From contig JACRMK010000056.1 in the NCBI GenBank assembly GCA_016235055.1, forward strand, positions 23,359 to 87,358: DNA of 64,000 nt. Direction: 5' to 3'. The notes beneath the pieces are model-generated. The model made no database searches and was not told the origin of the DNA. It worked only from the letters and a program-made list of their open reading frames with translations. The stretch is from Chloroflexota bacterium. Its GTDB lineage: Bacteria > Chloroflexota > Anaerolineae > JACRMK01. Shown here one piece after another: positions 8,077 through 59,400 of this stretch. Within the stretch, counting starts at the first letter, position 1; every line of letters begins with the position of its first letter. A program made the translations under genes and the position numbers.

Positions 8077-8333
8077 CAGCAATTCTCATTTTGGAGTCGG
8101 CTGCCACTATGCCCCCTCATCCCCTGCCCCTTCTCCCCCGCGGGGGAGAAGGGGAAAAGCTAACGGGGAGGTGCGCGGCGGCTGCGCCGCCGCGTCAATC
8201 CCCTATGAATCTCGCCCCCTCCCAACTTCGTTGGGAGGGGGTCGGGGGGAGGGCAGCGCCACTTCTTCGGCGGGCCAGCGCATCGCGAGCGGCGTTGAAA
8301 AGTACCCGTCCAAAGCCAAATTGAGAATTGCTG
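8077..8333. mobile_element. TIR-bounded palindrome-rich miniature element, copy 1 (257 bp), flanked by a 9-bp direct repeat CGCCAAGTA
   Basis: Termini cagcaattctcattttgg ... ccaaattgagaattgctg are inverted repeats. CGCCAAGTA occurs at 8068-8076 and 8334-8342. The interior has three GC-rich palindromes. Confidence 0.7.
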
Positions 8334-8364
8334 CGCCAAGTAACCGTTTTACGACCTCGGCGTG

Positions 8365-8370
8365 CTATAA
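8365..8370 (+). promoter_or_regulatory. TATAAT -10 box 7 nt upstream of GTG 8378
   Basis: cgtgcTATAATggcgctGTGaagacc. Confidence 0.35.
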
Positions 8371-8377
8371 TGGCGCT

Positions 8378-9736
8378 GTGAAGACCACGCTCATCCGCCA
8401 CGCCCATCTGGTCGCGACGTTTGATGACCGGCGACGCGAGATCCGAGACGGCGCAATCCTCGTGCGCGGCCATCTGATCGAGCAGGTCGGCGCGACGTCT
8501 GAGTTGCCATCCGGGGCCGACGAGACCATCGATGCGCGCGATCATGTCATTATCCCCGGCCTGATCAACTGCCATCACCACCTGTATCAGACGTTGACTC
8601 GCGCGGTGCCCGGCGCGCAGGATGGCACGCTCTTCCAATGGCTGGTCACGCTCTACCCGATCTGGGCCAATCTGACGGCGCAGGCTATCTATATTTCAGC
8701 GCTGACCGGTCTGAGCGAGCTGCTGTTGAGCGGCTGCACGACAGTCGCCGACCACCTCTACATCTACCCGAACGGCGCGCGCATCGACGACGAGATTCGC
8801 GCCGCACAAGAGATCGGCGTGCGCTTCCACCCGACGCGCGGCAGCATGTCGCTAGGCGAATCGCAGGGCGGCCTGCCGCCGGACCGGGTCACTGAGAACG
8901 AAGAGGCGATCCTGCGCGACACGCGCCGGGCCATTGAAGCGTACCACGACCCGGCGCCGTACTCGATGTGCCGCGTTGGCGTGGCGCCGTGCTCGCCGTT
9001 CTCGGTCACGACCGACTTGATGCGCCAGTCGGCGGAACTTGCGCGCGCTTATGGCGTGCGCTGCCACACCCATCTGGCCGAGACCGCCGACGAAGACCAG
9101 TTCTGTCTCGAGAAGTTCGGCCGCCGCCCGCTCGAGTACGCCGAGGATGTCGGCTGGGTCGGCGACGATGTCTGGTACGCTCACGGGGTGTGGTTCGACC
9201 CGGCGGAGATCGGTCGCATCGGCCGGTCGGGCAGCGGCATCGCACACTGCCCCACCTCCAATATGCGCCTCGGGTCCGGCGTCGCGCCGCTGTTGAACTG
9301 GCTATCCCACGGCGTCAAGGTCGGGCTCGGTGTGGATGGCAGCGCCAGCAACGATTCCGGCCATCTGCTGGCCGAAACGCGCCAGGCGATGCTGCTGCAG
9401 CGCGTGACGCATGGCCCGGCCGCGCTGACCGCGCGCCAGGCGCTGGAACTCGGCACGCGCGGCGGCGCGGCGGTGCTCGGCCGCACGGATATCGGCGCGC
9501 TCGCGCCCGGCATGGCGGCCGATCTGGCGATGTTCGACCTGAACCAACTCGCCTATGCCGGCGCATGGCACGACCCGCTGGCCGCGCTCGTCTTCTGCGC
9601 GCCGCAGACCGCCAGCCTGGTGATGGTCAACGGCCGCTTGGTGGTCCGCGAGCAGCATCTCACGACAATTGAACTCGGCCCCGTGATCGAGCAGCACAAC
9701 CGCATTGCGCGGGCCATGGTCGACGGTCCGCGCTAG
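8378..9736 (+). CDS. amidohydrolase-superfamily deaminase, 8-oxoguanine deaminase / SsnA-chlorohydrolase type
   Basis: PGLINCHHHLYQTLTR metal-binding HxH, then HLAET, CHTHLAET and a VGLGVDGSASND aspartate loop. The start is reset to GTG 8378 because the longer ORF 8039.. is translated through the repeat element. Confidence 0.85.
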   Translation: MKTTLIRHAHLVATFDDRRREIRDGAILVRGHLIEQVGATSELPSGADETIDARDHVIIPGLINCHHHLYQTLTRAVPGAQDGTLFQWLVTLYPIWANLTAQAIYISALTGLSELLLSGCTTVADHLYIYPNGARIDDEIRAAQEIGVRFHPTRGSMSLGESQGGLPPDRVTENEEAILRDTRRAIEAYHDPAPYSMCRVGVAPCSPFSVTTDLMRQSAELARAYGVRCHTHLAETADEDQFCLEKFGRRPLEYAEDVGWVGDDVWYAHGVWFDPAEIGRIGRSGSGIAHCPTSNMRLGSGVAPLLNWLSHGVKVGLGVDGSASNDSGHLLAETRQAMLLQRVTHGPAALTARQALELGTRGGAAVLGRTDIGALAPGMAADLAMFDLNQLAYAGAWHDPLAALVFCAPQTASLVMVNGRLVVREQHLTTIELGPVIEQHNRIARAMVDGPR

Positions 9737-9838
9737 ACGGACGAGGAGGCGCACCGACACACCTGTAGCGAAGCCCGCCCACATTGGATTCAACCCGTGT
9801 CAGACTCGGGACACGGTCCCATTCGGAGGAAAACGCCC

Positions 9839-11029
9839 ATGGTTCGCAAGCTGTTTCTAATCAGTGCGCTGCTCGCCCTGCTGCTGCTGGCAGCCTGCAG
9901 CCCGTCGACCCCCACCCCGCCGACGGCGGCCAAGCCGTTCACGTTTGGCGTCGTGCTGGTCGGCCCCAAGGACGACCACGGCTGGAGCGAAGCGCATTAC
10001 AACGCCGGATTGTACCTGGAGAAGAAGCTCCCCGGTTCCAAGATGGTCTGGCTCGACAAGGTGAACCCGGCCGACCGCAAAGGCACCACGCTCGAACAGG
10101 TTATCGATGACATGGTGAAGCAGGGCGCCAAGCTTATCTTCACCACGTCCGACGACTTCAAAGACGATTCCCGCGCGTACGCGCAGAAGCACGCCGACGT
10201 CACGATCATGCACATCTCCGGCGACGACGTGCTGACCAAGAAGAACCCGCCCAACCTCGGCAACTACATGGGCCGCATGGAATACGGCAAGATGATCGCC
10301 GGGTGCGCTGCCGCACTGACCTCGCAGACCGGCAAGATCGGCTACCTCGGCCCCCTCATCAACGACGAAACGCGCCGCCTGGCTGCCTCCGTCTTCCTCG
10401 GCGCCAAGTATTGCTGGACGACCGTGCGCGCCAAGCCGGCCGCCGACCTGAAGTTCGAAGTCCGCTGGATCGGCTTCTGGTTCAATATTCCCGGCGTCAC
10501 ACTCGACCCGACGAAGGTCTCCAACGACTTCTATAATGGCGGCTTCGACGTCGTCCTGAGCGGCATCGACACGACGCAGGCGCTGGTGCAGGCCGGCGAA
10601 GCGGCGAAAGCCGGCAAGAAGGTCTGGGCGATCCCGTACGACTTCAGGGACGCCTGCAACGAAGCCGCCTCAGTCTGCCTCGGCGTGCCTTACTTCAACT
10701 GGGGCCCCGGCTACCTGAAACTGGCCAACGCATACAACGCCAAGACGTGGAAGCCGGAGTTCGAGTGGCTTGCGCCGGACTGGAAGGACATCAACAACGC
10801 CGACACCAGCCCGGTCGGCTGGGTGCCCGGCCCGGCACTCGCCGCCGACAACAAGACGAAGGTGGATGCGTTCATCAAAGGTCTGGCCGATGGCTCGATC
10901 GACCTGTGGAAGGGCGAGCTGAAGTTGCAGGACGGATCGGTCTATCTGAAGGCCGGCGAGAAGGCCACCGACAACCAGATCTGGTTCCTGCCCCAACTGC
11001 TGCAGGGCATGGACGGAGCCAGCAAGTAG
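9839..11029 (+). CDS. BMP-family ABC transporter substrate-binding lipoprotein (nucleoside/purine-binding PnrA-like)
   Basis: Lipoprotein signal MVRKLFLISALLALLLLAAC and BMP-family sequence throughout. Upstream of the ATPase and two permeases. Confidence 0.85.
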   Translation: MVRKLFLISALLALLLLAACSPSTPTPPTAAKPFTFGVVLVGPKDDHGWSEAHYNAGLYLEKKLPGSKMVWLDKVNPADRKGTTLEQVIDDMVKQGAKLIFTTSDDFKDDSRAYAQKHADVTIMHISGDDVLTKKNPPNLGNYMGRMEYGKMIAGCAAALTSQTGKIGYLGPLINDETRRLAASVFLGAKYCWTTVRAKPAADLKFEVRWIGFWFNIPGVTLDPTKVSNDFYNGGFDVVLSGIDTTQALVQAGEAAKAGKKVWAIPYDFRDACNEAASVCLGVPYFNWGPGYLKLANAYNAKTWKPEFEWLAPDWKDINNADTSPVGWVPGPALAADNKTKVDAFIKGLADGSIDLWKGELKLQDGSVYLKAGEKATDNQIWFLPQLLQGMDGASK

Positions 11030-11081
11030 CAGTCTGTCAATCGCCCGGGCGCCGGCAGATCATGCCGGCGCCCGGCGTCAT

Positions 11082-12560
11082 TTGCGACATCGCATGCACC
11101 TCATCCTGCGCGAGATTACGAAGACGTTCGGCCGTGTGCCGGCCAACGATCGCATCTCGTTGACCGTCGAGCCGGGCATCATCCACGGCCTGCTCGGCGA
11201 AAACGGGGCCGGCAAGTCCACCCTGATGAAGGCGCTGTCCGGCTTCATCAGCGCGGACAGCGGCGAGATCGTGCTGGACGGAAAGAGCGTGCGCTTCCGG
11301 TCGCCGCTCGAGGCGCTGGAGCATGGCATCGGCATGCTCCACCAGGACCCGCTGGATTTCCCCACCCTGAGCGTGCTTGAGAACTTCATGCTCGGCATGC
11401 CTGGTACGCTGCCGCCGCGCGCGGCGGCGCTCGCCCAGCTTCTGGACCTATCGCGCCAGTTTGACTTTACCCTGGCCCCGGAGTCACCGGCCGGCGCCTT
11501 AAGCCCCGGCGAGCGTCAACAACTCGAAATCGTGCGCCTGCTCGCACGCGGCGCGGAGTTGCTGATACTTGATGAGCCGACCACCGGCATCTCGCAGGTG
11601 CAGAAGGTCAAGCTCTTTGTGACGCTCCAGAAACTGGCGGCGCAGGGCAAGAGCATTATCCTCGTGACCCACAAGCTCGAAGACGCCGAGACACTGTGCC
11701 AGCGTGTGACCGTGCTGCGCCGCGGCCGGGTCGTCGGCGAGGTCGAGCGACCGTTCACCACTCAGAAACTGGTCCAGCTCATGTTCGGCCAGGAACTGCC
11801 ACGCCTGGAGCGCCCGGCCCTATCGGCCACACAAACGACCGTGACCGTCCGGGACCTGGCGGTACACGATCACCGCATGGCGGTGGAAGCGGTCAACCTG
11901 GAGATCATGGCCGGCGAGGTCATCGGGCTGGCCGGACTGGAAGGTAGCGGGCAGCGGCTGGTCATGCGCGCGCTCGGCGGCCTGCTGACGCCTTCGCACG
12001 GCGAGATCAGCGTCGGTGGGCAGTCGCTGGCCGGCAAACCGTACAGCCAGTTTCTGCGTACCGGCGTTGCGTACTTGCCGGCCGGGCGGATGGATGAAGG
12101 GCTTGTGCCGGGCCTCAATCTAACGGAGCATTTTGAACTGGCGCGCCGCAGCCACGACTTCACCGTGGACTGGAAACGCGCGGAAGCGCTGGCCGCCGAG
12201 CGAATCGACATGTTTAGCATTCGCGGCCGCCCCGCAACCGCAGTCGATGACCTTTCGGGCGGCAACCAGCAGCGCGCTCTGCTCGCGCTGCTGCCGGAGC
12301 AACTTTCACTGCTGTTGCTGGAGCACCCGACGCGCGGACTCGACATCGAATCGTCGGCCTGGGTCTGGACGCAACTGCTGGAACGCAGACGGCACGGCAC
12401 GGCCATCATCTTCATCTCCGCCGACCTCGACGAGATTCTGGCTTACAGCGACCGCATCGTCGTCTTCTCCGGCGGCCAGGTCAGCGCGCCGCTCGCCGCC
12501 CGCGACGCGACCGTCGAGCAACTCGGCAACCTGATCGGCGGCAAGCGCGCCCAGGGCTGA
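11082..12560 (+). CDS. ABC transporter ATP-binding protein with duplicated ATPase domains
   Basis: Two Walker A sites (GENGAGKST and GLEGSGQ), two LSGG signature motifs and Walker B sites. Confidence 0.9.
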   Translation: MRHRMHLILREITKTFGRVPANDRISLTVEPGIIHGLLGENGAGKSTLMKALSGFISADSGEIVLDGKSVRFRSPLEALEHGIGMLHQDPLDFPTLSVLENFMLGMPGTLPPRAAALAQLLDLSRQFDFTLAPESPAGALSPGERQQLEIVRLLARGAELLILDEPTTGISQVQKVKLFVTLQKLAAQGKSIILVTHKLEDAETLCQRVTVLRRGRVVGEVERPFTTQKLVQLMFGQELPRLERPALSATQTTVTVRDLAVHDHRMAVEAVNLEIMAGEVIGLAGLEGSGQRLVMRALGGLLTPSHGEISVGGQSLAGKPYSQFLRTGVAYLPAGRMDEGLVPGLNLTEHFELARRSHDFTVDWKRAEALAAERIDMFSIRGRPATAVDDLSGGNQQRALLALLPEQLSLLLLEHPTRGLDIESSAWVWTQLLERRRHGTAIIFISADLDEILAYSDRIVVFSGGQVSAPLAARDATVEQLGNLIGGKRAQG

Positions 12561-12567
12561 TAGCAAC

Positions 12568-13626
12568 ATGACCACATCCGTCCCGCGCAGGTCAGTAACG
12601 CGCGTCGCTCGCCGGCTGATGCCGGCGCTGCAGCCTGTCGCACTGGCGCTGATCGTCACGCTCGTGATCATTGTACTGGTCGGCGCGTCGCCGCTCGCCG
12701 TGCTGGCCGGCATGTGGGACGGCGCGTTCGGCGATGCCGACCGGCAGGCCGATGTGCTGGCCGCCTGGGTGCCGCTGACGCTCGCCACCGTCGGACTGCT
12801 CGTTACTTTCACTGCCGGCCTGTGGAACATCGGTATCGAGGGGCAGATCACGCTCGGTGCGATTGGCGCCACCTTCGTCGTGCGCACGCTACCGGACCTG
12901 CCGGCGCCGCTGCTCCTGTCGCTCGTCCTGCTGAGCGCGGCCGTTGCCGGCGGACTGTGGGGATTGATCGTCGGAGCGCTAAAAACGTACGGCAAGGTAC
13001 ATGAGATCTTCGGTGGGATGGGGCTCAACTTCGTGGCCATCGGCCTCACAAACTACCTGATCTTCGGGCCGTGGAAGCAGGCCGGTCGCGCGTCGGCCAG
13101 CGGCACGGAACCATACCCGCTGAACGCCTATCTACCGACGCTGGAGGGGCTGCGCCTCAGCCCGTATGCGCTCGGGCTGGCCATTGTCGCGCTTTTGATA
13201 GTGTACGTGGCGCTGCGCGGAACCACCTGGGGTCTGCAACTCAAAGCGATCGGCAAGAGCTTGCGCGCCGCGCACTGGCTCGGTATCGCCACCGAGCGGC
13301 AGATACTGCTGGCGTTCGTTGTGGCGGGCGCATGCGCCGGTCTCGCCGGTGCTGTGCAGACCACTGTGACGTATCACCGCCTCATCCCGTCCATCAGCAG
13401 CGGCTACGGATATCTGGCCATCCTGGTCGCGCTGCTGGCCGGGTTCCGCGCTCTGTGGGTCGCCCCACTAGCGTTCTTCTTCGCAGCGCTCAGCCTGGGT
13501 AGCCGCACGCTGCAGATGCAGTTGCAACTCGACTCGTCGCTCGGCGGCGTCATCCAGGGCGTGCTGGTGCTGATCGTCGTGCTCGCGCGCGGCCTCGGCA
13601 CGCGCAGCGGCAATACGGAGACCTAG
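12568..13626 (+). CDS. ABC transporter permease (BMP-system, first permease)
   Basis: Multi-TM ORF immediately after the ATPase, a typical BMP-ABC operon order. Confidence 0.85.
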   Translation: MTTSVPRRSVTRVARRLMPALQPVALALIVTLVIIVLVGASPLAVLAGMWDGAFGDADRQADVLAAWVPLTLATVGLLVTFTAGLWNIGIEGQITLGAIGATFVVRTLPDLPAPLLLSLVLLSAAVAGGLWGLIVGALKTYGKVHEIFGGMGLNFVAIGLTNYLIFGPWKQAGRASASGTEPYPLNAYLPTLEGLRLSPYALGLAIVALLIVYVALRGTTWGLQLKAIGKSLRAAHWLGIATERQILLAFVVAGACAGLAGAVQTTVTYHRLIPSISSGYGYLAILVALLAGFRALWVAPLAFFFAALSLGSRTLQMQLQLDSSLGGVIQGVLVLIVVLARGLGTRSGNTET

Positions 13627-13629
13627 CGC

Positions 13630-14598
13630 ATGGACATCGTCATCCGCCTGCTGGCCTCTATCCTGGCCGATTCCGCGCCGCTCGTCTTCGCGGCGGTCGG
13701 CGAGACGATCACCGAGAAGGCCGGCGTCATCAACCTGTCGCTCGACGGCTCGCTGATGCTGGCCGCGATGGCCGGCTTCGCCGTGGCGTACAGCACCGGC
13801 AGCGTGGCCGCCGGATTCCTGGCGGCGATGGCGGTCGGCGCGCTCGTCGCGCTGCTCATCGCGTACGCGGGTATTGCGCTCAATCGCGACCAGGTGGCCG
13901 TCGGGTTCATCCTGACTGTGCTCTGCACCGATCTCAGTTCGTTCCTCGGCACGCCGTTTGTGCGCAAGCCGATCATCACTGCGTTGCCCGCGCCCATCCC
14001 GTTCCTGAGCGACATCCCGGTGCTCGGCACGCTCTTCTTCAACCACAGCGTCACGGTGTACGCCAGCTTCGCCGTCGTGCTGCTCGCCTGGCTGTTCATG
14101 TTCAAGACGCAGCCCGGCCTCATGCTGCAGGGCATCGGCGAGCGCCCGGCGGCGGCCTTCGCACGCGGCGCAAACGTCAACCGCCTGCGCTACCTCTATA
14201 CGCTGATTGGCGGCGCCCTGGTCGGCGTGGCCGGCGCGGCGTTCTCGCTGGGCGCCAGCCCCGGCTGGAGCTACCATCACACGCAGGGCTTCGGCTGGAT
14301 CGCGCTGTCGATCGTCATCTTTGGCGGCTGGCACCCGTTCCGCGCCGCCTTCGGCGCATACCTGTTCGGCGGGCTGCAAACACTCGGCAGCGTGCTGCAG
14401 GCCGGCATGCCCGACATGCCGATCTACGTCTTCCAGGTCGCGCCGTTCCTGATGATGATCCTCGTCCTGCTCGCAGCCAACAGCGAGGGACTCGACCGCC
14501 TGATGGCCTACCTGCCTGCCGGGTTCGCGCGCTGGCTCACGCGCATGCTGCGCGGGCAGTCGCCCGCCGCATTAGGCGCCAACTTCCATTCGGAGTAA
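13630..14598 (+). CDS. ABC transporter permease (BMP-system, second permease)
   Basis: Multi-TM ORF 4 nt after the preceding permease. Confidence 0.85.
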   Translation: MDIVIRLLASILADSAPLVFAAVGETITEKAGVINLSLDGSLMLAAMAGFAVAYSTGSVAAGFLAAMAVGALVALLIAYAGIALNRDQVAVGFILTVLCTDLSSFLGTPFVRKPIITALPAPIPFLSDIPVLGTLFFNHSVTVYASFAVVLLAWLFMFKTQPGLMLQGIGERPAAAFARGANVNRLRYLYTLIGGALVGVAGAAFSLGASPGWSYHHTQGFGWIALSIVIFGGWHPFRAAFGAYLFGGLQTLGSVLQAGMPDMPIYVFQVAPFLMMILVLLAANSEGLDRLMAYLPAGFARWLTRMLRGQSPAALGANFHSE

Positions 14599-14660
14599 AA
14601 TGGTTTGCCGTTGGCGCGCATGTTGGCGCGCCGGCGCCCATCCCGCCAAACGAACCGCGC

Positions 14661-15209
14661 ATGCCCAAAGTCTATCTCATCCGCAACGCCGAGACGCAGG
14701 CAACTCATGAGGACCCCGCCTTCTGGCCGCTGTCGGATCGCGGCGAGGAGCAGGCGCGCATGATCGCGCGGCTGCCTTTTTGGGACGCAGTCACGGCGAT
14801 CGTCAGCAGCGACGAAAGCAGCGCGCTCGCCACCGTCAGCCAGATTGTGTTTGACCGCCGCCTCCCGCTGTTTCACGATGTGCGCCTGCGCGAACTGAAA
14901 CGCACCAGCGAGCACCTGGAAGACCCCGAGTCGCGCGTGCTCGAAGTCATGCAGAAACCGGCGCTCAGCATCGGCGGTTGGGAGCGCGCCACCGATGCGC
15001 AGACGCGCGCAACGGCGTGCTTCCAGGAACTCGTCGACCGCTACGGCGAGGCGACGTTTGCCGTCGTCTCGCACGGCATGACGCTGGCGCTGCTGCTCGG
15101 CGTGCTGCAGGAATCGGTCGGCTACGCGTTCGATATCTGGCAATCGCTCGGCCACGGAAGCGTCGTGCTCGTCGAGCGCGATGACGCGCCGGCCCTTCCC
15201 GCCACATAA
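14661..15209 (+). CDS. histidine phosphatase family protein (phosphoglycerate-mutase-like)
   Basis: N-terminal LIRNAET.....LSD.GEEQA (an RHG-type motif with N replacing H) and the overall length. Confidence 0.7.
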   Translation: MPKVYLIRNAETQATHEDPAFWPLSDRGEEQARMIARLPFWDAVTAIVSSDESSALATVSQIVFDRRLPLFHDVRLRELKRTSEHLEDPESRVLEVMQKPALSIGGWERATDAQTRATACFQELVDRYGEATFAVVSHGMTLALLLGVLQESVGYAFDIWQSLGHGSVVLVERDDAPALPAT

Positions 15210-15227
15210 CAAGGATCCCGCCAAGCT

Positions 15228-16319
15228 ATGCAGATCGGCATCATTGGCCTGCCCACGTCGGGCAAGACCACCATTTTCAATGCGCTAACGCGCGGCAACA
15301 TCGCCCCGGCGGCCTACTCGTCCGGCAAGTTCGAAGTGCACACCGGCGTCGTCGACGTGCCGGACGACCGGCTTGGCGTGCTGGCGCAGATGTTCAACCC
15401 GCGCAAGGTGACGCACGCGAAGGTGCAGTATAACGATGTGGCCGGCCTCGCGCGCGGCGCCGGCGAGAAAGGCGGGCTGGAGCCGGCGCTCCTCAACCTG
15501 CTCTCGCAGAGCGACGCGCTGATTCTGGTCATCCGCGCTTTTGACGACCCGAACGTGCCGCACCCGGACGGCAGCGTGGACCCGGCGCGCGACCTGAATG
15601 CGCTGGAGACCGAATTACTGCTGGCCGACCTGATGGCGGTCGAAAAGCGCCTGCAGCGACTGAAGGAAGACGCCGGCAAGCGCGGCGGCACGCCGCAGGA
15701 GAAGGAAATGCGCGTGCGCGAGGTCGCCCTCTTCGAGCGCATGCAGACTCACCTCGAAGGCGAGCGGCGCCTCAACACGCTCGGCATGAATGAAGATGAA
15801 GTCAAATCGGTGCGCGGCTTTGGCCTGCTGACCGTCAAACCGACGATGGTCATCTACAATCTGGCGGAGTCGCAGTCGCCCCAGGCCGAGTGGGAACGGC
15901 GCGACGGCGACCAGGGCACCATCCACACGGCACTGCGCGGCAAGCTGGAAATGGAAATCGCGCAGATGGCGCCCGACGATGCGCGCGAGTTTCTTGCTGA
16001 GTACGGCATTACCGAGCCCGGCCTGAACCGCATCATCCGGCTCTCGTACGACCTGCTCGGCCTGCATTCGTTCCTGACGACCGGCGAAGACGAGGTGCGC
16101 GCCTGGACGGTCCGCAAAGGCGCGACAGCGGTCGAAGCCGCCGGCACCATTCACAGCGACCTGGCGCGCGGCTTCATTCGCGCCGAAGTCATCGCGTATG
16201 CCGACCTGATCGACGCGGGCGGATTCGCCGAAGCGCGCAAGCGCGGCACGCTGCGGCTCGAGGGCAAAACGTACGTGGTCAGCGATGGCGACATCGTCCA
16301 CGTCAAGTTCAACGTGTAG
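15228..16319 (+). CDS. ychF: redox-regulated ATPase YchF (Obg-family GTPase)
   Basis: GIIGLPTSGKTTIFNALT G1 motif, 363 aa with a C-terminal TGS domain. Confidence 0.9.
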   Translation: MQIGIIGLPTSGKTTIFNALTRGNIAPAAYSSGKFEVHTGVVDVPDDRLGVLAQMFNPRKVTHAKVQYNDVAGLARGAGEKGGLEPALLNLLSQSDALILVIRAFDDPNVPHPDGSVDPARDLNALETELLLADLMAVEKRLQRLKEDAGKRGGTPQEKEMRVREVALFERMQTHLEGERRLNTLGMNEDEVKSVRGFGLLTVKPTMVIYNLAESQSPQAEWERRDGDQGTIHTALRGKLEMEIAQMAPDDAREFLAEYGITEPGLNRIIRLSYDLLGLHSFLTTGEDEVRAWTVRKGATAVEAAGTIHSDLARGFIRAEVIAYADLIDAGGFAEARKRGTLRLEGKTYVVSDGDIVHVKFNV

Positions 16320-16344
16320 CACGACAGAGCACAGGAGCGAGACC

Positions 16345-17421
16345 ATGAAGGCCGCCGTCTTGCGCGCGCCCAATGCGCCGCTGACCATCGAGCAGGTCGA
16401 TCTGGACACTAATCTGCTAACCGGCGAGGTGCTGGTGCGGATTACGCACGCCGGCGTCTGCCACAGCGACTACCACATCATGATCGGCGAGACGCCGCAC
16501 CCAATGCCGGTGGTGCTCGGGCACGAGGGCGCGGGCATCGTGGAGGCCGTCGGGCCGGGCGTTAGCCGCCTGCACAAGGGCGATCCGGTCGCCGTGACGT
16601 TCCGCCCATTCTGCGGCTACTGCCGGCAGTGCAACAGCGGCCATCCGAACCTGTGCGACAACGTCGAAGTGCTGCGCCGCGCCTGCCGCCTCAGTCAGCA
16701 CGGCGAGCGCGTGTACAACTTCATCGGCGTGTCGTGCTTCGCCGAGTACACGGTCGTGCACGAATCCGCCGCCATCAAGGTGCCGTCCGACGTGCCGCTC
16801 GACCGCGCCGCGCTCGTCTCATGCGGCGTGATGACCGGCGTCGGCGCCGTCATCAACACGGCGAAGGTTTCGCCGGGCGAGACGGTGGCTGTGATCGGTT
16901 GCGGCGGCGTCGGGCTGAATGTGATTCAGGGCGCGCGGCTGGCCAACGCCTCCGTCATCATCGCGGTCGACATTCACGACAACAAGCTGGAGATGGCGAC
17001 CACGTTCGGCGCGACACATCTGATCAACGGCCGGTCCGAAGACGCGATCAAGAAAGTGCGCGAGCTTGTCAAGGGCGGTGTGGACTGGTCATTCGAGGTC
17101 ATCGGCCTGCCGGCGACCATGGAACAGGCGTACGCTATGATCCGCAAAGGCGGCACGGCCGTCATGGTTGGCATGCCGCCGTCGGCCAGCAAGGTTTCGT
17201 TCCCGGCGTTCTCCTTTTTTGCCGAGGAGAAGACAGTCAAAGGCTCCATGTTCGGCAGCGCGCGTCCCAGCATCGACATCCCGCGTGTCCTCGATCTGTA
17301 CAAGCATCACCAATTGCAGCTAGACGAGTTGATCTCGCGTCACTACCCGCTTGAGCGTATCAACGAAGCGTACGAGGCACTGGCGCGCGGCGAAGTGGCC
17401 CGCAGCGTCATCGATCTCTAG
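16345..17421 (+). CDS. zinc-dependent alcohol dehydrogenase family protein
   Basis: GVCHSDYH and GHEGAG zinc motifs, and GCGGVG Rossmann. The start is reset to the MKAAVL ATG. Confidence 0.85.
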   Translation: MKAAVLRAPNAPLTIEQVDLDTNLLTGEVLVRITHAGVCHSDYHIMIGETPHPMPVVLGHEGAGIVEAVGPGVSRLHKGDPVAVTFRPFCGYCRQCNSGHPNLCDNVEVLRRACRLSQHGERVYNFIGVSCFAEYTVVHESAAIKVPSDVPLDRAALVSCGVMTGVGAVINTAKVSPGETVAVIGCGGVGLNVIQGARLANASVIIAVDIHDNKLEMATTFGATHLINGRSEDAIKKVRELVKGGVDWSFEVIGLPATMEQAYAMIRKGGTAVMVGMPPSASKVSFPAFSFFAEEKTVKGSMFGSARPSIDIPRVLDLYKHHQLQLDELISRHYPLERINEAYEALARGEVARSVIDL

Positions 17422-17442
17422 CCCCTGTCGGATTGAAACGCC

Positions 17443-18675
17443 ATGAGCCCTGACATCACCCAAGAAATCCGGTCGCTCGTCGCCCAGCGGCGCGACTCGA
17501 TGATCCGGTTCTTCCGCGATATCTGCGCGATTCCGTCGTACGACTCGCAGATCGGCCCCGTGGGCGAGCGCGTCGGCCAGGAGATGCGCGCCCTCGGCTT
17601 CGACGAGGTGCGCTTCGACAAGATGGGCAATATCCTGGGCCGCATCGGCAACGGGCCGCGCTGCCTGGTGTATGATTCGCACATCGACACCGTCGGCGTC
17701 GGCGATCCGGCCGCCTGGGAGTGGGATCCGTTCAAGGGCAAGGTTGAAAACGGCATTCTCTTCGCGCGCGGGGCATGCGACGAAAAAGGCTCGACGCCCG
17801 GCATGATCTACGGCCTGGCGCTCGCCCGACAGCTCGGTCTGCTGCACGGCTGGACCGCGTACTACTTCGGCAATATGGAAGAGTGGTGCGACGGCATCGC
17901 CCCCAACTCGTTCGTTGAGGTGGACCCAAGGGTACGCCCCGATTTCGTCGTCATCGGCGAGCCGACCAAGATGCAGGTCTATCGCGGGCACAAAGGGCGC
18001 ATCGAGTTGCAGATCACGGCCAGCGGCAAATCGGCTCATGCCGCGCACCATCACCTGGGTGACAACGCGGTGTACAAGATGCTGGACATCATCGCGGGCA
18101 TCCGCGATCTCGACGCGCAGCTGCCGAGCGACCCGTTCCTGGGCAAGGCAACCGTGGTTGTCACCGATGCTGAGGTGCACACGCCGTCCATCAACGCCGT
18201 GCCAGACCTGTTCAGTATCTTCATCGACCGCCGCATTACGTTCGGCGAGACGCGCAAAGGCATCGTGGAGCGCATCCAGGCACTGATTCCGGCTGAACTG
18301 CGCGGCGAGATCACGCTCAAAGAGATGTTCTACGACACGCCGAGCTACACCGGCTTCGTCTTCCCGATCGAAAAGTACTATCCGCCCTGGGCGCTCGATG
18401 AGACGCATCCCCTGGTGCGCGCCGGGCAACGCACGATGGCGCGTCTGTGGGGCGAAGCGCCGCCCACGGGCAAATGGGGCTTCTCGACCAACGGCACCTA
18501 CTGGGCGGGGAAGGCGCAGATACCGTCGATCGGCTTCGGGCCCGGCGACGAGGTCCACGCGCACACCACGCTGGACCAGAACAAGCTCGACGATGTGGTG
18601 CGCGCCACCGAATGGTACGCGCTTTTTCCGACCGTGTTGGCGCAACTTACCGCCGCCGTTACGCCGGAGTTCTAG
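17443..18675 (+). CDS. M20-family peptidase, YgeY-like
   Basis: HIDTV, ARGACDEKG and EPT...GHKG motifs, 410 aa. Confidence 0.85.
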   Translation: MSPDITQEIRSLVAQRRDSMIRFFRDICAIPSYDSQIGPVGERVGQEMRALGFDEVRFDKMGNILGRIGNGPRCLVYDSHIDTVGVGDPAAWEWDPFKGKVENGILFARGACDEKGSTPGMIYGLALARQLGLLHGWTAYYFGNMEEWCDGIAPNSFVEVDPRVRPDFVVIGEPTKMQVYRGHKGRIELQITASGKSAHAAHHHLGDNAVYKMLDIIAGIRDLDAQLPSDPFLGKATVVVTDAEVHTPSINAVPDLFSIFIDRRITFGETRKGIVERIQALIPAELRGEITLKEMFYDTPSYTGFVFPIEKYYPPWALDETHPLVRAGQRTMARLWGEAPPTGKWGFSTNGTYWAGKAQIPSIGFGPGDEVHAHTTLDQNKLDDVVRATEWYALFPTVLAQLTAAVTPEF

Positions 18676-18688
18676 CCGCTCGTTGTAC

Positions 18689-18719
18689 GCCCCGCACCGT
18701 GCCGGTGCGGGGCTTTTTT
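18689..18719 (+). terminator. Rho-independent terminator (11-bp GC stem + T6)
   Basis: gccccgcaccg-tgc-cggtgcggggc-tttttt, 14 nt after the peptidase stop. Confidence 0.7.
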
Positions 18720-18746
18720 GTTGCCCGCAAGCCGGGCCTCTGCATG

Positions 18747-19034
18747 CAGCAATTCTCAATTTGGCTTTGTACGGGTACTTTCCAATGCCGCTTGCGATGC
18801 GCTGGCTCTCAGGCGCTTGTCACGCAAGCTGGCCCGCCGAAAAAGTGGCGTTGCCCTCCCCCCGACCCCCTCCCAACTTCGTTGGGAGGGGGCGAGATTC
18901 TTCGGGGATTGGCGCGGCGGCGTAGCCGCCGCGCCAATCCCCGTTAGCTTTTCCCCTTCTCCCCCGCGCGCGGGGGAGAAGGGGCAGGGGATGAGGGGGC
19001 ATATTGGCAGCCGACTCCAAAATGAGAATTGCTG
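18747..19034. mobile_element. TIR-bounded palindrome-rich miniature element, copy 2 (288 bp, opposite orientation to copies 1 and 3), flanked by a 9-bp direct repeat CTCTGCATG
   Basis: CTCTGCATG occurs at 18738-18746 and 19035-19043. TIR cagcaattctcaatttgg ... caaaatgagaattgctg. Confidence 0.7.
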
Positions 19035-19146
19035 CTCTGCATGCGAGCGCCGCGACCGCACGGTGGTATCATATATCCAGGAAGAGTGCGTGCGGCTTCT
19101 CACCGATTGCCGTCGGGCACGGACACAGTGAGCCCGAAAGGAGGCC

Positions 19147-20106
19147 ATGATGCGGAGTTTTCTGGGCCGCGACATCCTGTCGCTGAAGGATTTCGAACGT
19201 GACGATTTCACGCGTGTCTTTCAAGTCGCCAAAGACCTCGAGCCGATTGCGCGCGACCGGCGCAACAGCGACCTGCTGGCGGCCAAGACGCTCGTGACGG
19301 CATTCTACCAGCCGAGTACCCGCACCCGGCTGGCGCATGAGGCGGCCATGCACCGGCTCGGCGGCCACGTGGTCGGGTTTGCCGACTTCAAGATGACGCG
19401 CGCCGGCGACTGGTATCAGGAATCAATCAAGGATACCGTTCGCATGCTCGAGTATTACGGTGACGCAATCGTCATGCGCCATTTCCTGCAGGGCGCGCCC
19501 GCCGAGGCTGCGCGCTGGGCCAGCGTTCCGGTGATCAATGCAGGCGACGGTTGGGGCGAGCACCCCACACAGGTGCTGACCGACTTGTACACTGTGCGCG
19601 AGGAGCGCGGCCGCATCGACGGCCTGACGTTCCTCTGCATCGGCGATATGCGCATGCGGACGATGCACTCCCTCTCGTATGCGCTCACCCAGTTTGATTG
19701 CCAGGCGATCTACGTCGCGCCGCCCGACATGTCGCTGACGGACGAGTTCAAGGCCGAGTTGCGCGAGCGCAACCTGCGTTTCCGCGAGGCAGAGCATGTC
19801 GCACAAGTGATCGATCAGGCCGACGTGATCTACATGGAGCCGGTCATCCAGGCCGACTACACGCAATCGCGCGTCGAGCACGCGTCCGAGCGGCCGCATA
19901 CGCCGGATAACTATGTCGTCAGCCGCGAACTCCTGCGTGACAAGGCGCGCTCCGATGCCATCATCCTGCACTCCCTGCCGCGCATGGACGAGTTGCCCGC
20001 CGACGTGGATGGTACCCGCCATGCGCGCTACTGGCAGGAAGCGTTCAATGGCGTTGTCGTGCGCATGGCGCTGCTGGCCTTGATCCTTGGCGCGGCTGAG
20101 CGGTAA
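19147..20106 (+). CDS. aspartate/ornithine carbamoyltransferase family protein (divergent, PyrB-like)
   Basis: The STRTR carbamoyl-phosphate motif and HPTQ are present. The C-terminal motif is LHSLP rather than the canonical HPLP/HCLP, and the 80s-loop region is atypical. Confidence 0.8.
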   Translation: MMRSFLGRDILSLKDFERDDFTRVFQVAKDLEPIARDRRNSDLLAAKTLVTAFYQPSTRTRLAHEAAMHRLGGHVVGFADFKMTRAGDWYQESIKDTVRMLEYYGDAIVMRHFLQGAPAEAARWASVPVINAGDGWGEHPTQVLTDLYTVREERGRIDGLTFLCIGDMRMRTMHSLSYALTQFDCQAIYVAPPDMSLTDEFKAELRERNLRFREAEHVAQVIDQADVIYMEPVIQADYTQSRVEHASERPHTPDNYVVSRELLRDKARSDAIILHSLPRMDELPADVDGTRHARYWQEAFNGVVVRMALLALILGAAER

Positions 20107-20121
20107 TCCGCGGCGAGCGTA

Positions 20122-20235
20122 GCGCATATCCCGTCGATCGGCTTCGGTCCGGGCGACGAGGTCTACGCGCATACCACGCTCGACCAGATCAGCCTCGACG
20201 ATGTCGTGCGCGCAACCGAGTGGTATGCGCTCTTG
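20122..20235 (+). pseudogene. orphan duplicated 3' fragment of the M20 peptidase gene (about 85% nt identity to 18517-18630)
   Basis: Encodes ..IPSIGFGPGDEVYAHTTLDQISLDDVVRATEWYAL, compared with IPSIGFGPGDEVHAHTTLDQNKLDDVVRATEWYAL at the peptidase C-terminus. It has no start codon or upstream body. Confidence 0.55.
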
Positions 20236-20449
20236 TCCGCGCTGCTCGCGCACCACATGGCTGCAACCTCGCCCACGCCGCAACACCGCAAAGATCAGGC
20301 CGGAGTTCAATGCTCACCAAAGGCGCCCAGATGCGGGCGCCTTTGTCTTTTGTGCCTGCGCCCCATGCCAATTTACCCTTCACAGGGAGTGACATTCGCC
20401 CCTTCCGCCGCACGGCAGCTTCGAGTAAACTAAGGAGCGCGCATCGTTC

Positions 20450-21187
20450 ATGCGCTCTCGGAGGCCAGCAATGAATCACCGGCGTCAAAGCAAACCGGCA
20501 GTGGACGCACACCGCAACCATTCGCGCCTTTCGGAAGTGATACTCGGCGGGCAGGACGGACTGGTCAACGTGCTCGGCGTCATTCTGGGCGTCGCCGCGG
20601 CGACCAGCGACACGTCCATTGTGCTCGTCGCCGGGCTGGCCGCCACCTTCGCCGAATCGGTGTCGATGGGCGCGGTGGCGTACACCTCGACGCTGGCCGA
20701 CGCGGAGCTGTACGAAAGCGAACGGCAGCGCGAATTCCGGCATATTACTGCGCAGCCGGATCGCGAGCGAGACGAAATCCGCCAGATCTACGCGCAGAAG
20801 GGTTTTAGCGGCGATCTGCTTGAGCGGATCGTGAACACGATCACGGCCAGTCCGGACGTCTGGGTGGCCGTCATGATGGCTGAGGAGATGCGCCTGATGC
20901 CGTCGGATCGCGGCCACGCACTACGCTCGGCGTTCGTCGTCGGCTTCGCCGCGATTGTCGGCTCGCTGATCCCGCTGGCGCCCTACATCTGGCTTCCGGT
21001 CGGCACCAGCATGCTGCTGTCGCTCATCATCGCTGCCCTGACGCTATTTGTGGTCGGTGCCTACAAAGCGCGCACGACCGTCGGGCACCCGGGGCGCAGC
21101 GGGCTGGAAATGGCCCTGATCGGCACGCTCAGTGCGCTGGCCGGCTATCTGGCTGGCGTGATCTTCAAAGTACCGGCGGCGCCATAA
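20450..21187 (+). CDS. VIT1/CCC1 family iron/manganese transporter
   Basis: ILGGQDGLVNVLGVILGVAAA plus a C-terminal TM cluster. A possible shorter start at MNHRR (20471). Confidence 0.85.
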   Translation: MRSRRPAMNHRRQSKPAVDAHRNHSRLSEVILGGQDGLVNVLGVILGVAAATSDTSIVLVAGLAATFAESVSMGAVAYTSTLADAELYESERQREFRHITAQPDRERDEIRQIYAQKGFSGDLLERIVNTITASPDVWVAVMMAEEMRLMPSDRGHALRSAFVVGFAAIVGSLIPLAPYIWLPVGTSMLLSLIIAALTLFVVGAYKARTTVGHPGRSGLEMALIGTLSALAGYLAGVIFKVPAAP

Positions 21188-28800: not shown

Positions 28801-29027
28801 TGGCACTGCTACGCACAATCTGGGACAAATGGCGCGCGTTCGGCCACTGGATGGCCGACGTGGTCGGCCGAGTGGTCATGACTATCTTCTATTTCACGCT
28901 GGCCGCCCCGTTCGGCATTGGCGTACGGCTGTTCAGCGATCCACTGCACCTGAAGCCCGAAACGCCGCAATGGAATCCCCGCGAGCCGGTTTCCGAAGCG
29001 TTGGACGATGCGCGGAGGTCATTCTAG
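28801..29027 (+). CDS. small membrane protein (75 aa) immediately upstream of the O-carbamoyltransferase (SxtJ-like position)
   Basis: MALLRTIWDKWRAFGHWMADVVGRVVMTIFYFTLAAPFGIGV... The true start is internal to ORF 28686..29027. Confidence 0.45.
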
Positions 29028-29028
29028 C

Positions 29029-30831
29029 ATGCGCATCCTGGGCATTTCGTGCTTCTATCACGACTCGGCCGCGGCGCTGCTGGTTGACGGCATGCTCGTG
29101 GCCGCTGCGGAGGAAGAGCGCTTCACCCGCAAGAAGCACGATCACGACTACCCAGCGCAGGCGGTCGCGTTCTGCCTCAAGCAGGCTGGTATCACCGCCG
29201 GCGATCTGGACTACGTGGTCTTTTACGAGAAGCCGCTGGTCAAGTTTGAGCGCATTCTGATGACCTCGCTGGGCGGCTATCCCAGGACCTGGCGCGTTTT
29301 TCCGGAAGCGATGGTCGCGTGGTTTAATGAAAAACTGTGGGTCAAGGGCCTCATCGTCCGCAAGCTGGGCGTGCCGCAGAACCGCGTGTTGTTCGCCGAC
29401 CATCACATGGCGCACGCGGCCAGCGCGCTCTTCTGCGCGCCGTATGCGGACGCCGCCGTGCTCACGCTTGACGGCGTGGGCGAGTGGACAACCGCGGCGA
29501 TCGGGCACGGCCAGGCCGACTGGACCGGCACGGGCAAGAGCAGCATCAACCTGACCGGAGAGATTCGTTTTCCGCATTCGCTCGGGCTGCTCTACTCGGC
29601 TTTCACGGCGTTCCTCGGCTTCGAGGTGAATGAGGGCGAGTACAAGGTCATGGGCATGGCGCCCTACGGCGAGCCGCGCTACGTCGACGACGTGTACAAG
29701 CTCGTGCGCGTCGAAGCCGACGGCAGCTTCCGGCTGAGCATGGAATACTTCAGCTTCTACCACTCGACGGAGCAGACGTACAATCGCCGGTTCACCGAGT
29801 TGTTTGGCGAGCCGCGTGTCCGCGAGTCCGAGTTCTACACCCGGCAGACGCATCCGCAACGCGACCACCCGCAGTGGGATGACCGCGCCGCCGAACGCAA
29901 CCAGCACTACGCCGACATCGCGGCCAGCATCCAACGTGTCACCGAGGAGATTATCCTCAAGATGGCGCGCCACGCCCGGCTGAGCACAGGCTCAAAGCGA
30001 CTGGTCATGGCGGGCGGCGTGGCGCTCAACAGCGTAGCCAACGGGCGCATCCTGCGCGAGACCGGCTTCGAGGAACTGTTTATCCAGCCGGCCGCCGGCG
30101 ATTCGGGCGGGGCGCTGGGCGCGGCGCTGTACGCCTACCACGTCATTCTGGGCCAGCCGCGCAAGTTTACGTTGAACGACTGCTACTGGGGACAGGGATA
30201 CAGCAATTCCGAGATTGGCGATTACCTGCGCGCCAACAACATCCGGCACGAGCAATTCGACGACGAAGATCGCCTGCTCGATCGCGTGGTGGACGGCCTG
30301 GTGAATGGCAAGGTAGCCGGTTGGTTTCGCGGTCGCTTCGAATGGGGACCGCGCGCGCTCGGAAACCGCAGCATCATCGCCGATCCGCGGCGCGCCGAGA
30401 TGAAGAACATTGTCAACGCCAAGATCAAGTTCCGCGAGCCGTTTCGCCCCTTTGCGCCGGTGGTGCTGGAAGAGCGCACGGCGGAGTATTTTGATCTGGA
30501 CGACCCGGCGCGGCAGTTGCCGGCGCGGTACATGCTGCTGGTGGCCCCGATCAAGAGCGACAAGCAGGATCAGATTCCAGCGGTCAACCATATGGGCACC
30601 GGCCGCTTGCAGACGATCCGGCCGGAGACCAATTCCGGCTACTACAACGTCGTGCGCAAGTTCGGCGACGCGACCGGCGTGCCGGTGCTGATGAACACCT
30701 CGTACAACCTGCGCGGCGAGCCAATCGTGGCAAGCCCGGCAGACGCCATGCGCACGTTCAACAACAGCGGACTGGACATGCTGGTCTTTGACCGCTTTCT
30801 GGTATTGAAGGACAAGGAGGAAGCCGCATGA
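29029..30831 (+). CDS. NodU/CmcH-family O-carbamoyltransferase
   Basis: MRILGISCFYHDSAAALLVDG, HHMAHAASA and the YRF-domain C-terminal half, 600 aa. Confidence 0.9.
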   Translation: MRILGISCFYHDSAAALLVDGMLVAAAEEERFTRKKHDHDYPAQAVAFCLKQAGITAGDLDYVVFYEKPLVKFERILMTSLGGYPRTWRVFPEAMVAWFNEKLWVKGLIVRKLGVPQNRVLFADHHMAHAASALFCAPYADAAVLTLDGVGEWTTAAIGHGQADWTGTGKSSINLTGEIRFPHSLGLLYSAFTAFLGFEVNEGEYKVMGMAPYGEPRYVDDVYKLVRVEADGSFRLSMEYFSFYHSTEQTYNRRFTELFGEPRVRESEFYTRQTHPQRDHPQWDDRAAERNQHYADIAASIQRVTEEIILKMARHARLSTGSKRLVMAGGVALNSVANGRILRETGFEELFIQPAAGDSGGALGAALYAYHVILGQPRKFTLNDCYWGQGYSNSEIGDYLRANNIRHEQFDDEDRLLDRVVDGLVNGKVAGWFRGRFEWGPRALGNRSIIADPRRAEMKNIVNAKIKFREPFRPFAPVVLEERTAEYFDLDDPARQLPARYMLLVAPIKSDKQDQIPAVNHMGTGRLQTIRPETNSGYYNVVRKFGDATGVPVLMNTSYNLRGEPIVASPADAMRTFNNSGLDMLVFDRFLVLKDKEEAA

Positions 30832-43600: not shown

Positions 43601-43604
43601 ACCG

Positions 43605-43892
43605 CAGCAATTCTCATTTTGGAGTCGGCTGCCAATATGCCCCCTCATCCCCTGCCCCTTCTCCCCCCGCGCGCGCGGGAGAAGGGGAAAAGCTAACGGG
43701 GAGGTGCGCGGCGGCTGCGCCGCCGCGCACCTCCCCTAAGAATCTCGCCCCCTCCAACGAAGTTGGGAGGGGGTCGGGGGAAGGGCAGCGCCACGTTTTC
43801 AGCGGGCCAGCTTGCGTGACAAGCGCCTGAGAGCCAGCGCATCGCAAGCGGCATTGGAAAGTACCCGTACAAAGCCAAATTGAGAATTGCTG
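43605..43892. mobile_element. TIR-bounded palindrome-rich miniature element, copy 3 (288 bp), flanked by a 9-bp direct repeat GCTGAACCG
   Basis: GCTGAACCG occurs at 43596-43604 (contains the TGA stop of the kinase gene) and 43893-43901. Confidence 0.7.
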
Positions 43893-59246: not shown

Positions 59247-59400
59247 GCCGCCCCCTCATCCCCTGGCCCCTTCTCCCCCGCGCGCGGGGGAGAAGGGGAA
59301 AAACTAACGGGGAGGTGCGCGGCGGCTACGCCGCCGCGCACCTCCCCGGAGACTTGCTCCCCCTCCCAGCTTCGCTGGGAGGGGGCTGGGGGGAGGGCAG
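59247..59400. repeat. internal fragment (about 154 bp) of the palindrome-rich miniature element, lacking both TIRs
   Basis: Retains all three internal palindromes (cccccgcgcgcgggggag; ggggaggtgcgcggcggctacgccgccgcgcacctcccc; ccccctcccagcttcgctgggaggggg). It has no cagcaattctca termini. Confidence 0.6.

Follow-up and report, generated by a model that had tools for sequence, protein, structure and literature searches.

Within the window analysed here (i.e., the whole stretch of 64,000 nucleotides, which is part of an 88.7-kb contig of a Chloroflexota metagenome-assembled genome), we found the 3' end of a second ygeY-type gene stranded behind the carbamoyltransferase gene that follows the resident, full-length ygeY. 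We assign a probability of about 0.9 to the reading that this fragment is a non-functional relic of a second ygeY, located at a lineage-specific breakpoint. The initial annotation had proposed a displaced remnant of the peptidase 3' end at a structural rearrangement, and this general idea holds; synteny with related genomes breaks at the stop codon of the carbamoyltransferase gene. The features concerned are as follows.

17443 to 18675, forward strand: full-length YgeY-family M20 hydrolase, the resident copy (410 aa; TIGR03526 and Pfam matches).
18505 to 18666, forward strand: part of the resident gene matched by the fragment, codons 355 to 408 (tblastn; blastn core 18514 to 18630).
18689 to 18713, forward strand: predicted intrinsic terminator of the peptidase gene, a hairpin with TTTTTTGTT after it (-25.7 kcal/mol, z -3.5; kept in the closest relative, L083).
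18739 to 19043, forward strand: 289-nt non-coding repeat element (18747 to 19035) with flanking 8-bp target-site duplications (TCTGCATG on each side).
19147 to 20106, forward strand: ATCase-family carbamoyltransferase (319 aa; TIGR00670 and Pfam matches), the conserved downstream partner of the peptidase.
20101 to 20122, forward strand: junction zone, where synteny with relatives ends and peptidase homology begins (the alignment with L083 stops at the carbamoyltransferase stop codon).
20113 to 20274, forward strand: stranded 3' piece of another ygeY-type gene, 54 codons long and lacking both start and gene body (a highly probable pseudogene relic).
20275 to 20352, forward strand: rest of the fragment's tail, which can not be aligned and is free of stop codons in all frames, together with the fragment's own predicted terminator and a T-rich run.
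20318 to 20345, forward strand: predicted terminator hairpin of the fragment (-25.8 kcal/mol, z -2.9).
20471 to 21187, forward strand: VIT1/CCC1-family transporter, first gene of the non-syntenic right flank (Pfam VIT1, E 7.5e-56).

The duplicate that had been located at 20122 to 20235 is present there, far beyond chance, by blastn, by a repeat finder and by direct alignment. The core DNA match (20122 to 20239 against 18514 to 18630) was 86.4% identical over 118 columns (E 5.8e-34; blastn), the repeat finder returned the pair D1 (18514 to 18644 and 20122 to 20252, spacing 1608), and a MAFFT alignment of both copies contained a 108-nt core (36 codons) with approx. 86% DNA identity; the similarity is thus not below 70%, and the fragment is not low-complexity sequence. 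The resident counterpart at 18517 to 18630 was likewise recovered, but it does not represent the last 38 codons of the peptidase, as had been stated, since the gene continues for another 45 nt to its stop codon (18673 to 18675). Nor does the homology end at 20235; along the variable C-terminal tail it weakens gradually and is lost at approx. position 20274. At the protein level, YgeY residues 355 to 408 matched 20113 to 20274 over 54 residues without gaps (72% identity, E 8.6e-19; tblastn), and amino acid identity of the fragment to the 80 YgeY orthologues ranged from 57 to 80%. The translation of the fragment matched the NCBIfam model TIGR03526 (YgeY) at profile positions 352 to 391 of 395 (E 9e-10) and scored 38 bits, against a curated cutoff for full-length membership of 321.5; the resident peptidase scored 465 bits (cutoff 321.5) over profile positions 2 to 393 of 395 and carries the Pfam domains Peptidase_M20 and M20_dimer. 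On its translation, the fragment reads as homologous to the YgeY family, but not as a member gene.

The earlier observation that the duplicate has no gene body upstream was corroborated. Residues 1 to 354 of the peptidase are absent (tblastn found no homology to them near the fragment or elsewhere in the 64-kb window), and the fragment starts seven codons past the TAA of the carbamoyltransferase, in the same reading frame (chance expectation for a shared frame, one in three). No TAA, TAG or TGA was found in any frame of 20236 to 20350 before the terminator hairpin; a full-length parent gene of the fragment would carry the tail ..EWYALLSALLAHH... No sigma-70-like promoter was found just upstream of the fragment when 18400 to 20600 was scanned, and an Rfam scan of 18400 to 21000 returned sub-threshold hairpin noise only, with no riboswitch between the fragment and VIT1. 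The NCBI annotation calls no gene at the fragment (MBI5878832 and MBI5878833 are consecutive). The fragment is predicted to encode nothing and to have no present role as a gene. It probably lies within the predicted 3' untranslated region of the carbamoyltransferase mRNA and, going only by position and fold, the hairpin at 20318 to 20345 with its T run probably now ends the carbamoyltransferase transcript; the only function that the fragment is likely to have is a passive one, via this hairpin terminator. Like ordinary truncated pseudogenes at deletion or rearrangement junctions, it has no start, body or stop, is unannotated and sits at a synteny breakpoint, and its category is that of an ordinary truncated pseudogene, with no difference of substance. 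The region from 20107 to 20350 is better labelled as a ygeY pseudogene fragment plus terminator than as intergenic DNA or a small ORF.

Read-through of the TAA, giving a carbamoyltransferase-peptidase fusion, was also considered and was rejected, as no such fusion was seen among the homologues and the frame would cross the terminator. If the TAA were absent, the carbamoyltransferase ORF would extend for more than 100 codons, past the terminator, to position 20433.

We compared the window with 80 loci around the closest YgeY genes from one-genome-per-species collections (all but one labelled Chloroflexota or Anaerolineae); the wider search covered 80 genome loci, 80 metagenome VIT1 loci and 13 more loci found by exact protein match, and the closest relative in this sampling has 81% nucleotide identity. 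The canonical cluster starts with an 8-oxoguanine-deaminase-like amidohydrolase, GntR, YgeY and, optionally, the ATCase-like carbamoyltransferase, and continues with an OTC-like carbamoyltransferase, carbamate kinase, a Bmp-type ABC transporter and a PLP enzyme. The arrangement in the window (Bmp-ABC-permeases-HisPhos-YchF-(ADH)-YgeY) is that of a smaller clade (L083, L084, L085, L086 and L027). Compared to canonical loci (e.g., L010 and L167), this clade (8339 to 20106 in the window) has the transporters upstream of ygeY, with HisPhos-YchF-ADH inserted between. The genes ygeW-ygeX-ygeY-hyuA-yqeA make up the reductive uric-acid degradation cluster (PMC12507026); as in that cluster, the neighbours of YgeY in the relatives include an OTC-like carbamoyltransferase, carbamate kinase and a PLP-dependent lyase. 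Unlike the uric-acid cluster, the window keeps only the 8-oxoguanine deaminase, the Bmp-type ABC transporter, YgeY and the ATCase-like enzyme. As no carbamate kinase, OTC-like gene or PLP lyase was found within the 64-kb window, the catabolic set at this locus appears to be incomplete; in the uric-acid pathway, the fragment itself plays no part.

The contents that the initial annotation had listed for the interval between the two copies are real (i.e., the terminator, the repeat element with its 8-bp duplication and the ATCase-family gene). The carbamoyltransferase scored 260 bits against TIGR00670 (cutoff 237), carries the Pfam domains OTCace_N and OTCace, and is 70 to 85% identical in amino acid sequence to orthologues in the same position. 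YgeY is followed by the ATCase-like carbamoyltransferase in 27 of the 80 related Anaerolineae loci. The closest relative, L083, is 81% identical in nucleotide sequence over 3.8 kb (window 14881 to 18724), with 86 to 87% amino acid identity for YchF, ADH and YgeY (86% for the peptidase itself), and it shares the C-terminal tail of the peptidase (FPSELAQMAAAVTPES in the window vs FPTVLAQLTAAVTPEF in L083), the terminator and, directly downstream and without the repeat element, the start of the carbamoyltransferase. L083 shows no peptidase fragment downstream of the carbamoyltransferase; a threonine-dehydratase-like gene of the PALP family follows 77 nt past the carbamoyltransferase stop codon. 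As tail, terminator and carbamoyltransferase occur in L083 without a remnant, the interval between the two homologous blocks is ancestral except for the repeat element, and peptidase, terminator and carbamoyltransferase stand in the ancestral order. With the interval ancestral in place, the carbamoyltransferase is not a cassette dropped into the peptidase, and the proposed insertion of such a cassette into the peptidase 3' end is contradicted both by the gene order in the 27 loci and by L083.

The genes that follow the peptidase vary among the relatives. The PALP-family gene, the ancestral right-hand neighbour, is found directly after the peptidase in L086 (82% amino acid identity) and L027 (74%), and lower-identity homologues of the PALP313 type are found after the peptidase in L002 (54.5%) and after the carbamoyltransferase in L001 (48.7%); no PALP-family gene was found within the 64-kb window. 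The carbamoyltransferase is absent after the peptidase in L086, L027 and L002, and stands there in L001 and L083. Both L084 and L085 have ygeY as the last gene of the conserved block, with unrelated genes behind it. None of approx. 90 related loci showed a second peptidase, or a remnant of one, downstream of the carbamoyltransferase. The best 80 YgeY loci came from 80 different assemblies, so that long-lived close ygeY paralogue pairs look unusual.

The repeat element in the interval, described earlier as a MITE, belongs to a family with terminal inverted repeats (GCAGCAATTCTCA..) and two perfect internal palindromes, of which four copies occur in the window.

8077 to 8334 (reverse strand), 18747 to 19035 (forward strand), 43604 to 43892 (reverse strand) and 59250 to 59399 (partial): copies of the repeat element.

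These copies are 83 to 95% identical to each other, and the 8-bp target-site duplications differ at all three full copies (GCCAAGTA, TCTGCATG and GCTGAACC). The element was not found in the related loci fetched, and L083 provides an empty site for it between peptidase and carbamoyltransferase; by this comparison, the insertion at 18747 to 19035 is specific to the window's lineage.

Leftward of the carbamoyltransferase stop codon, the window and L083, L027 and L084 are collinear; rightward of it, no locus examined is related to the window. In place of the PALP-family gene, the window has the fragment, its own terminator, VIT1, Usp and a glycan-synthesis cluster (the NCBI proteins MBI5878829-834 are, consecutively, YchF, ADH, YgeY, aspartate carbamoyltransferase, VIT1 and Usp). 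Unambiguous peptidase homology begins at 20113 to 20122. The carbamoyltransferase ends in ..GAAER* (window 20098 to 20130) as compared to the conserved ..GAME end (AME* in six orthologues and in L083, ATE* in one), and because of these altered last codons we placed the joint there. The fragment marks the exact break of a conserved Anaerolineae purine-catabolism neighbourhood in one lineage. It had been suggested that relatives be inspected for a peptidase followed directly by the sequence downstream of the fragment. Peptidase tail and carbamoyltransferase were indeed kept together in L083, but neither the fragment nor VIT1 stood beside a peptidase in any relative examined. Specifically, no peptidase lay upstream of VIT1 in the 80 closest metagenome VIT1 loci (≤74% amino acid identity), and a full-length ygeY' followed by VIT1 was not found among the 80 genome loci, these 80 VIT1 loci and the 13 further loci. 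There was no compositional break at the junction (GC content 0.63 to 0.67 throughout), and sliding identity to L083 along the left flank showed no step. With flat GC content, no identity step and no locus that joins peptidase and VIT1, neither side stands out as imported. No integrase, recombinase or transposase was found between the copies or within 15 kb rightward. Proteins identical to ADH, VIT1 and Usp are present in Logan assemblies.

Over the 36-codon core, nucleotide identity was 86.1% between fragment and resident peptidase, 83.3% between fragment and the L083 peptidase, and 84.3% between resident and L083 peptidases. Identities of the fragment to the L084 and L085 peptidases were 83.3% and 82.4%, respectively, and the median for the other Anaerolineae loci was 66%. 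These values of 82 to 86% place the fragment in the same shallow clade as the resident gene, L083, L084 and L085, whose peptidases are equally far from one another, and show that it was not recently copied from the resident gene. Tail and terminator are common to the resident and L083, and the fragment's own are different; a tail or intergenic sequence shared by the fragment and L086, which an extended tblastn match had raised, was ruled out, as nucleotide alignment shows none. Divergence between fragment and resident was mostly synonymous (pS 0.39, pN 0.06, dN/dS 0.11), and all amino acid differences of the fragment fall at positions that are variable among functional orthologues. The parent gene thus evolved under purifying selection, was functional for nearly all of the divergence and was truncated late; the loss of the stop codon before the hairpin shows that some time has passed since truncation. 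The rearrangement had been called recent. As the two copies differ as much as orthologues of separate genomes in the clade do (86% vs 82 to 86% nucleotide identity), recency applies in a relative sense only: the truncation postdates the split from L083.

Damaged relatives of both genes were observed in related assemblies. In L083 (3980 to 4198), the carbamoyltransferase is cut to 72 codons by an in-frame internal deletion between GCGCATG direct repeats, so that residue ~61 is followed directly by the final 12 residues (in the window, this repeat occurs around 19340 and 20064); loss of the gene is under way in the L083 lineage. In L082 (4863 to 5732), ygeY has an internal deletion of residues ~167 to 308, and in L081 (9043 to 10240) a frameshift splits it into ORFs of 333 and 79 aa; damage in these two loci may represent true decay or assembly error. 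When the 68-residue fragment was searched against the protein collection, only short proteins were returned. Those that could be placed (L081 and L082) were frameshifted or internally deleted peptidases beside the OTC-like gene, and were set aside as not being remnants behind the carbamoyltransferase. One candidate for a second breakpoint at the same codon, P0005, was treated as a frameshift (by eye), as its N-terminus resembles out-of-frame upstream peptidase sequence. Another orphan ygeY 3' end occurs in L174 (1 to 529; ENA contig WILH17-1 scaffold_312299), where nucleotides 195 to 310 are 89.7% identical to the peptidase 3' end of L085, tail and stop codon included. This L174 fragment is fused in frame behind 41 unrelated codons (FolC-like by eye) and starts ~25 nt downstream of the start point of the window's fragment in the gene; it could reflect a real deletion or a chimeric short contig (529 nt).

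For the origin of the relic, we tentatively favour, at a little short of an even chance, an exchange in which two diverged versions of this one neighbourhood recombined and a single joint formed without homology. One version would have carried ygeY followed by the carbamoyltransferase, and the other would have carried ygeY' followed directly by its terminator and VIT1. Recombination between them would have been anchored by homology on one side and closed by an illegitimate joint at the carbamoyltransferase end (i.e., homology-facilitated illegitimate recombination), so that the 3' end of the other version's ygeY would have been stranded behind the surviving genes. Such an exchange would account for a piece of ygeY 1.4 kb from ygeY without a long-lived tandem paralogue. 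It is consistent with a stranded 3' end from an allele that diverged under selection (86% nucleotide identity, dN/dS 0.11, equidistant from the sister orthologues), with a syntenic left flank as anchor and a non-homologous joint at the other end, and with the finding of no second close ygeY, the best 80 loci representing 80 assemblies. Moreover, the end of the conserved block at ygeY in L084 and L085 makes a version with ygeY' followed by something else plausible. On the other hand, the predicted ygeY'-VIT1 arrangement was not found in any relative searched, the junction shows neither a GC break nor a step in identity to L083, homologous pairing is inefficient at 14 to 19% divergence, the lost stop codon implies time since truncation, and the junction is known from a single metagenome-assembled contig.

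Precedent for stranded 3' ends exists at Rhs, CdiA and T6SS effector loci, where displaced orphan 3' gene ends have been attributed to homology-facilitated illegitimate recombination (PMC5361080). As at those loci, an intact gene in the window is followed nearby by the stranded, promoterless 3' end of a diverged allele. Displacement at Rhs, CdiA and T6SS loci is recurrent and selected, however, and builds arrays with immunity genes, whereas the window has a single metabolic-hydrolase fragment with no selected cargo; unlike in those systems, the DNA between the copies in the window is ancestral rather than newly acquired.

A different origin, which we consider less likely but a serious competitor, is decay of a tandem paralogue. 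Here, an ancestral functional ygeY' would have stood downstream of the carbamoyltransferase in the same orientation, followed by VIT1, and one deletion from the carbamoyltransferase stop codon to codon ~352 of ygeY' would have also removed the threonine-dehydratase-like gene. The deletion of a tandem paralogue had been raised by the initial annotation as well, and mostly synonymous divergence needs a long functional life of ygeY'. Deletions are moreover common in this cluster of related assemblies (the L083 carbamoyltransferase, the L082 peptidase and the L174 orphan 3' end), and pS of the fragment to the resident was 0.39 as compared to 0.49 to 0.54 to the orthologues, a difference that would suit a lengthy stay of both copies in one genome but is not significant over 36 codons. 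The second peptidase itself was not recovered in the approx. 90 related loci; none was found within 10 kb downstream in related loci (L086 and L027 extend 10 kb rightward), and no genome among the 80 yielded a second close ygeY locus. Copies that are 14% diverged would also have had to coexist nearby without gene conversion. By either route, be it exchange among related uncultured Chloroflexota or paralogue loss, the fragment is a small trace of a past encounter between this locus and a second ygeY allele; its significance beyond this genome is small.

Insertion, in which the carbamoyltransferase with a donor peptidase 3' end and terminator entered the resident 3' end and pushed the resident's own end downstream, is improbable. 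A single crossover by a circularised fragment would be one route. The geometry fits, with direct repeats 1608 nt apart around terminator and carbamoyltransferase, and the carbamoyltransferase is variably present after the peptidase in relatives. However, L083 has the tail, terminator and carbamoyltransferase with no remnant and with the PALP-family gene directly after, so that three events would be needed (insertion before the L083 split, loss of the remnant in L083 and loss of PALP in the window) as compared to one or two. The longest identical run between the copies, 17 nt, is moreover a poor substrate for a homologous crossover.

An assembly chimera of two co-occurring related populations has to be considered because the window comes from a metagenome-assembled genome, and conserved motifs such as the one at 20130 to 20146 are typical spots for assembly-graph tangles. 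We nonetheless give it a very low probability. A k-mer joint would fall in shared sequence and yield a hybrid peptidase. It would not put a peptidase 3' end after the stop codon of the carbamoyltransferase, where the two flanks have no long k-mer in common, and an assembler could follow such a path only if the stretch from the end of the carbamoyltransferase to 20146 were real DNA.

The 3' end of icd in E. coli is duplicated at the integration site of e14 and phage 21; the e14 prophage integrates in the icd 3' end with a replacement 3' end, and the native end is left at the far side of the element. The window resembles icd/e14 in that a gene end of ~50 codons is duplicated, with mostly synonymous differences and one copy orphaned; unlike icd/e14, it has neither integrase nor prophage, and the intervening DNA is a conserved neighbour gene. 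Site-specific integration at the ygeY 3' end by a mobile element with its own replacement 3' end is the least probable origin of all, since, although the duplicated end of ~160 nt with mostly synonymous differences would by analogy recall icd/e14 and the L174 orphan starts within ~25 nt of the same gene position, the copies are separated by 1.5 kb of ancestral DNA and a small repeat element, the interval contains no recombinase domains, and L174 is a 529-nt contig that is possibly chimeric.

The start points of the two independent orphan ends, in the window and in L174, which lie within ~25 nt of each other in a 1.2-kb gene, give no more than a hint that in this Anaerolineae clade the ygeY 3' end near the IPSIGFGPGDE codons may be a hot spot for repeated breakage or attachment, which we regard as a long shot. 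If such a hot spot existed, alleles would have been swapped repeatedly and old 3' ends left stranded, as at Rhs or icd-type loci.

With regard to the carbamoyltransferases themselves, the ATCase-like protein is unusually conserved (window 19147 to 20106 and loci L167 to L173): it is 79 to 85% identical in amino acid sequence in many metagenome-assembled genomes of Chloroflexota and in some labelled Actinobacteria or Acidimicrobiia, values above those of YgeY itself. Annotated as aspartate carbamoyltransferase, it sits beside the OTC-like carbamoyltransferase and carbamate kinase in the purine-catabolic cluster. A further carbamoyltransferase, of the NodU/CmcH type (Carbam_trans_N and Carbam_trans_C), is encoded at 29008 to 30831 in the glycan-synthesis cluster of the right flank and has no homology to the ATCase-family gene.
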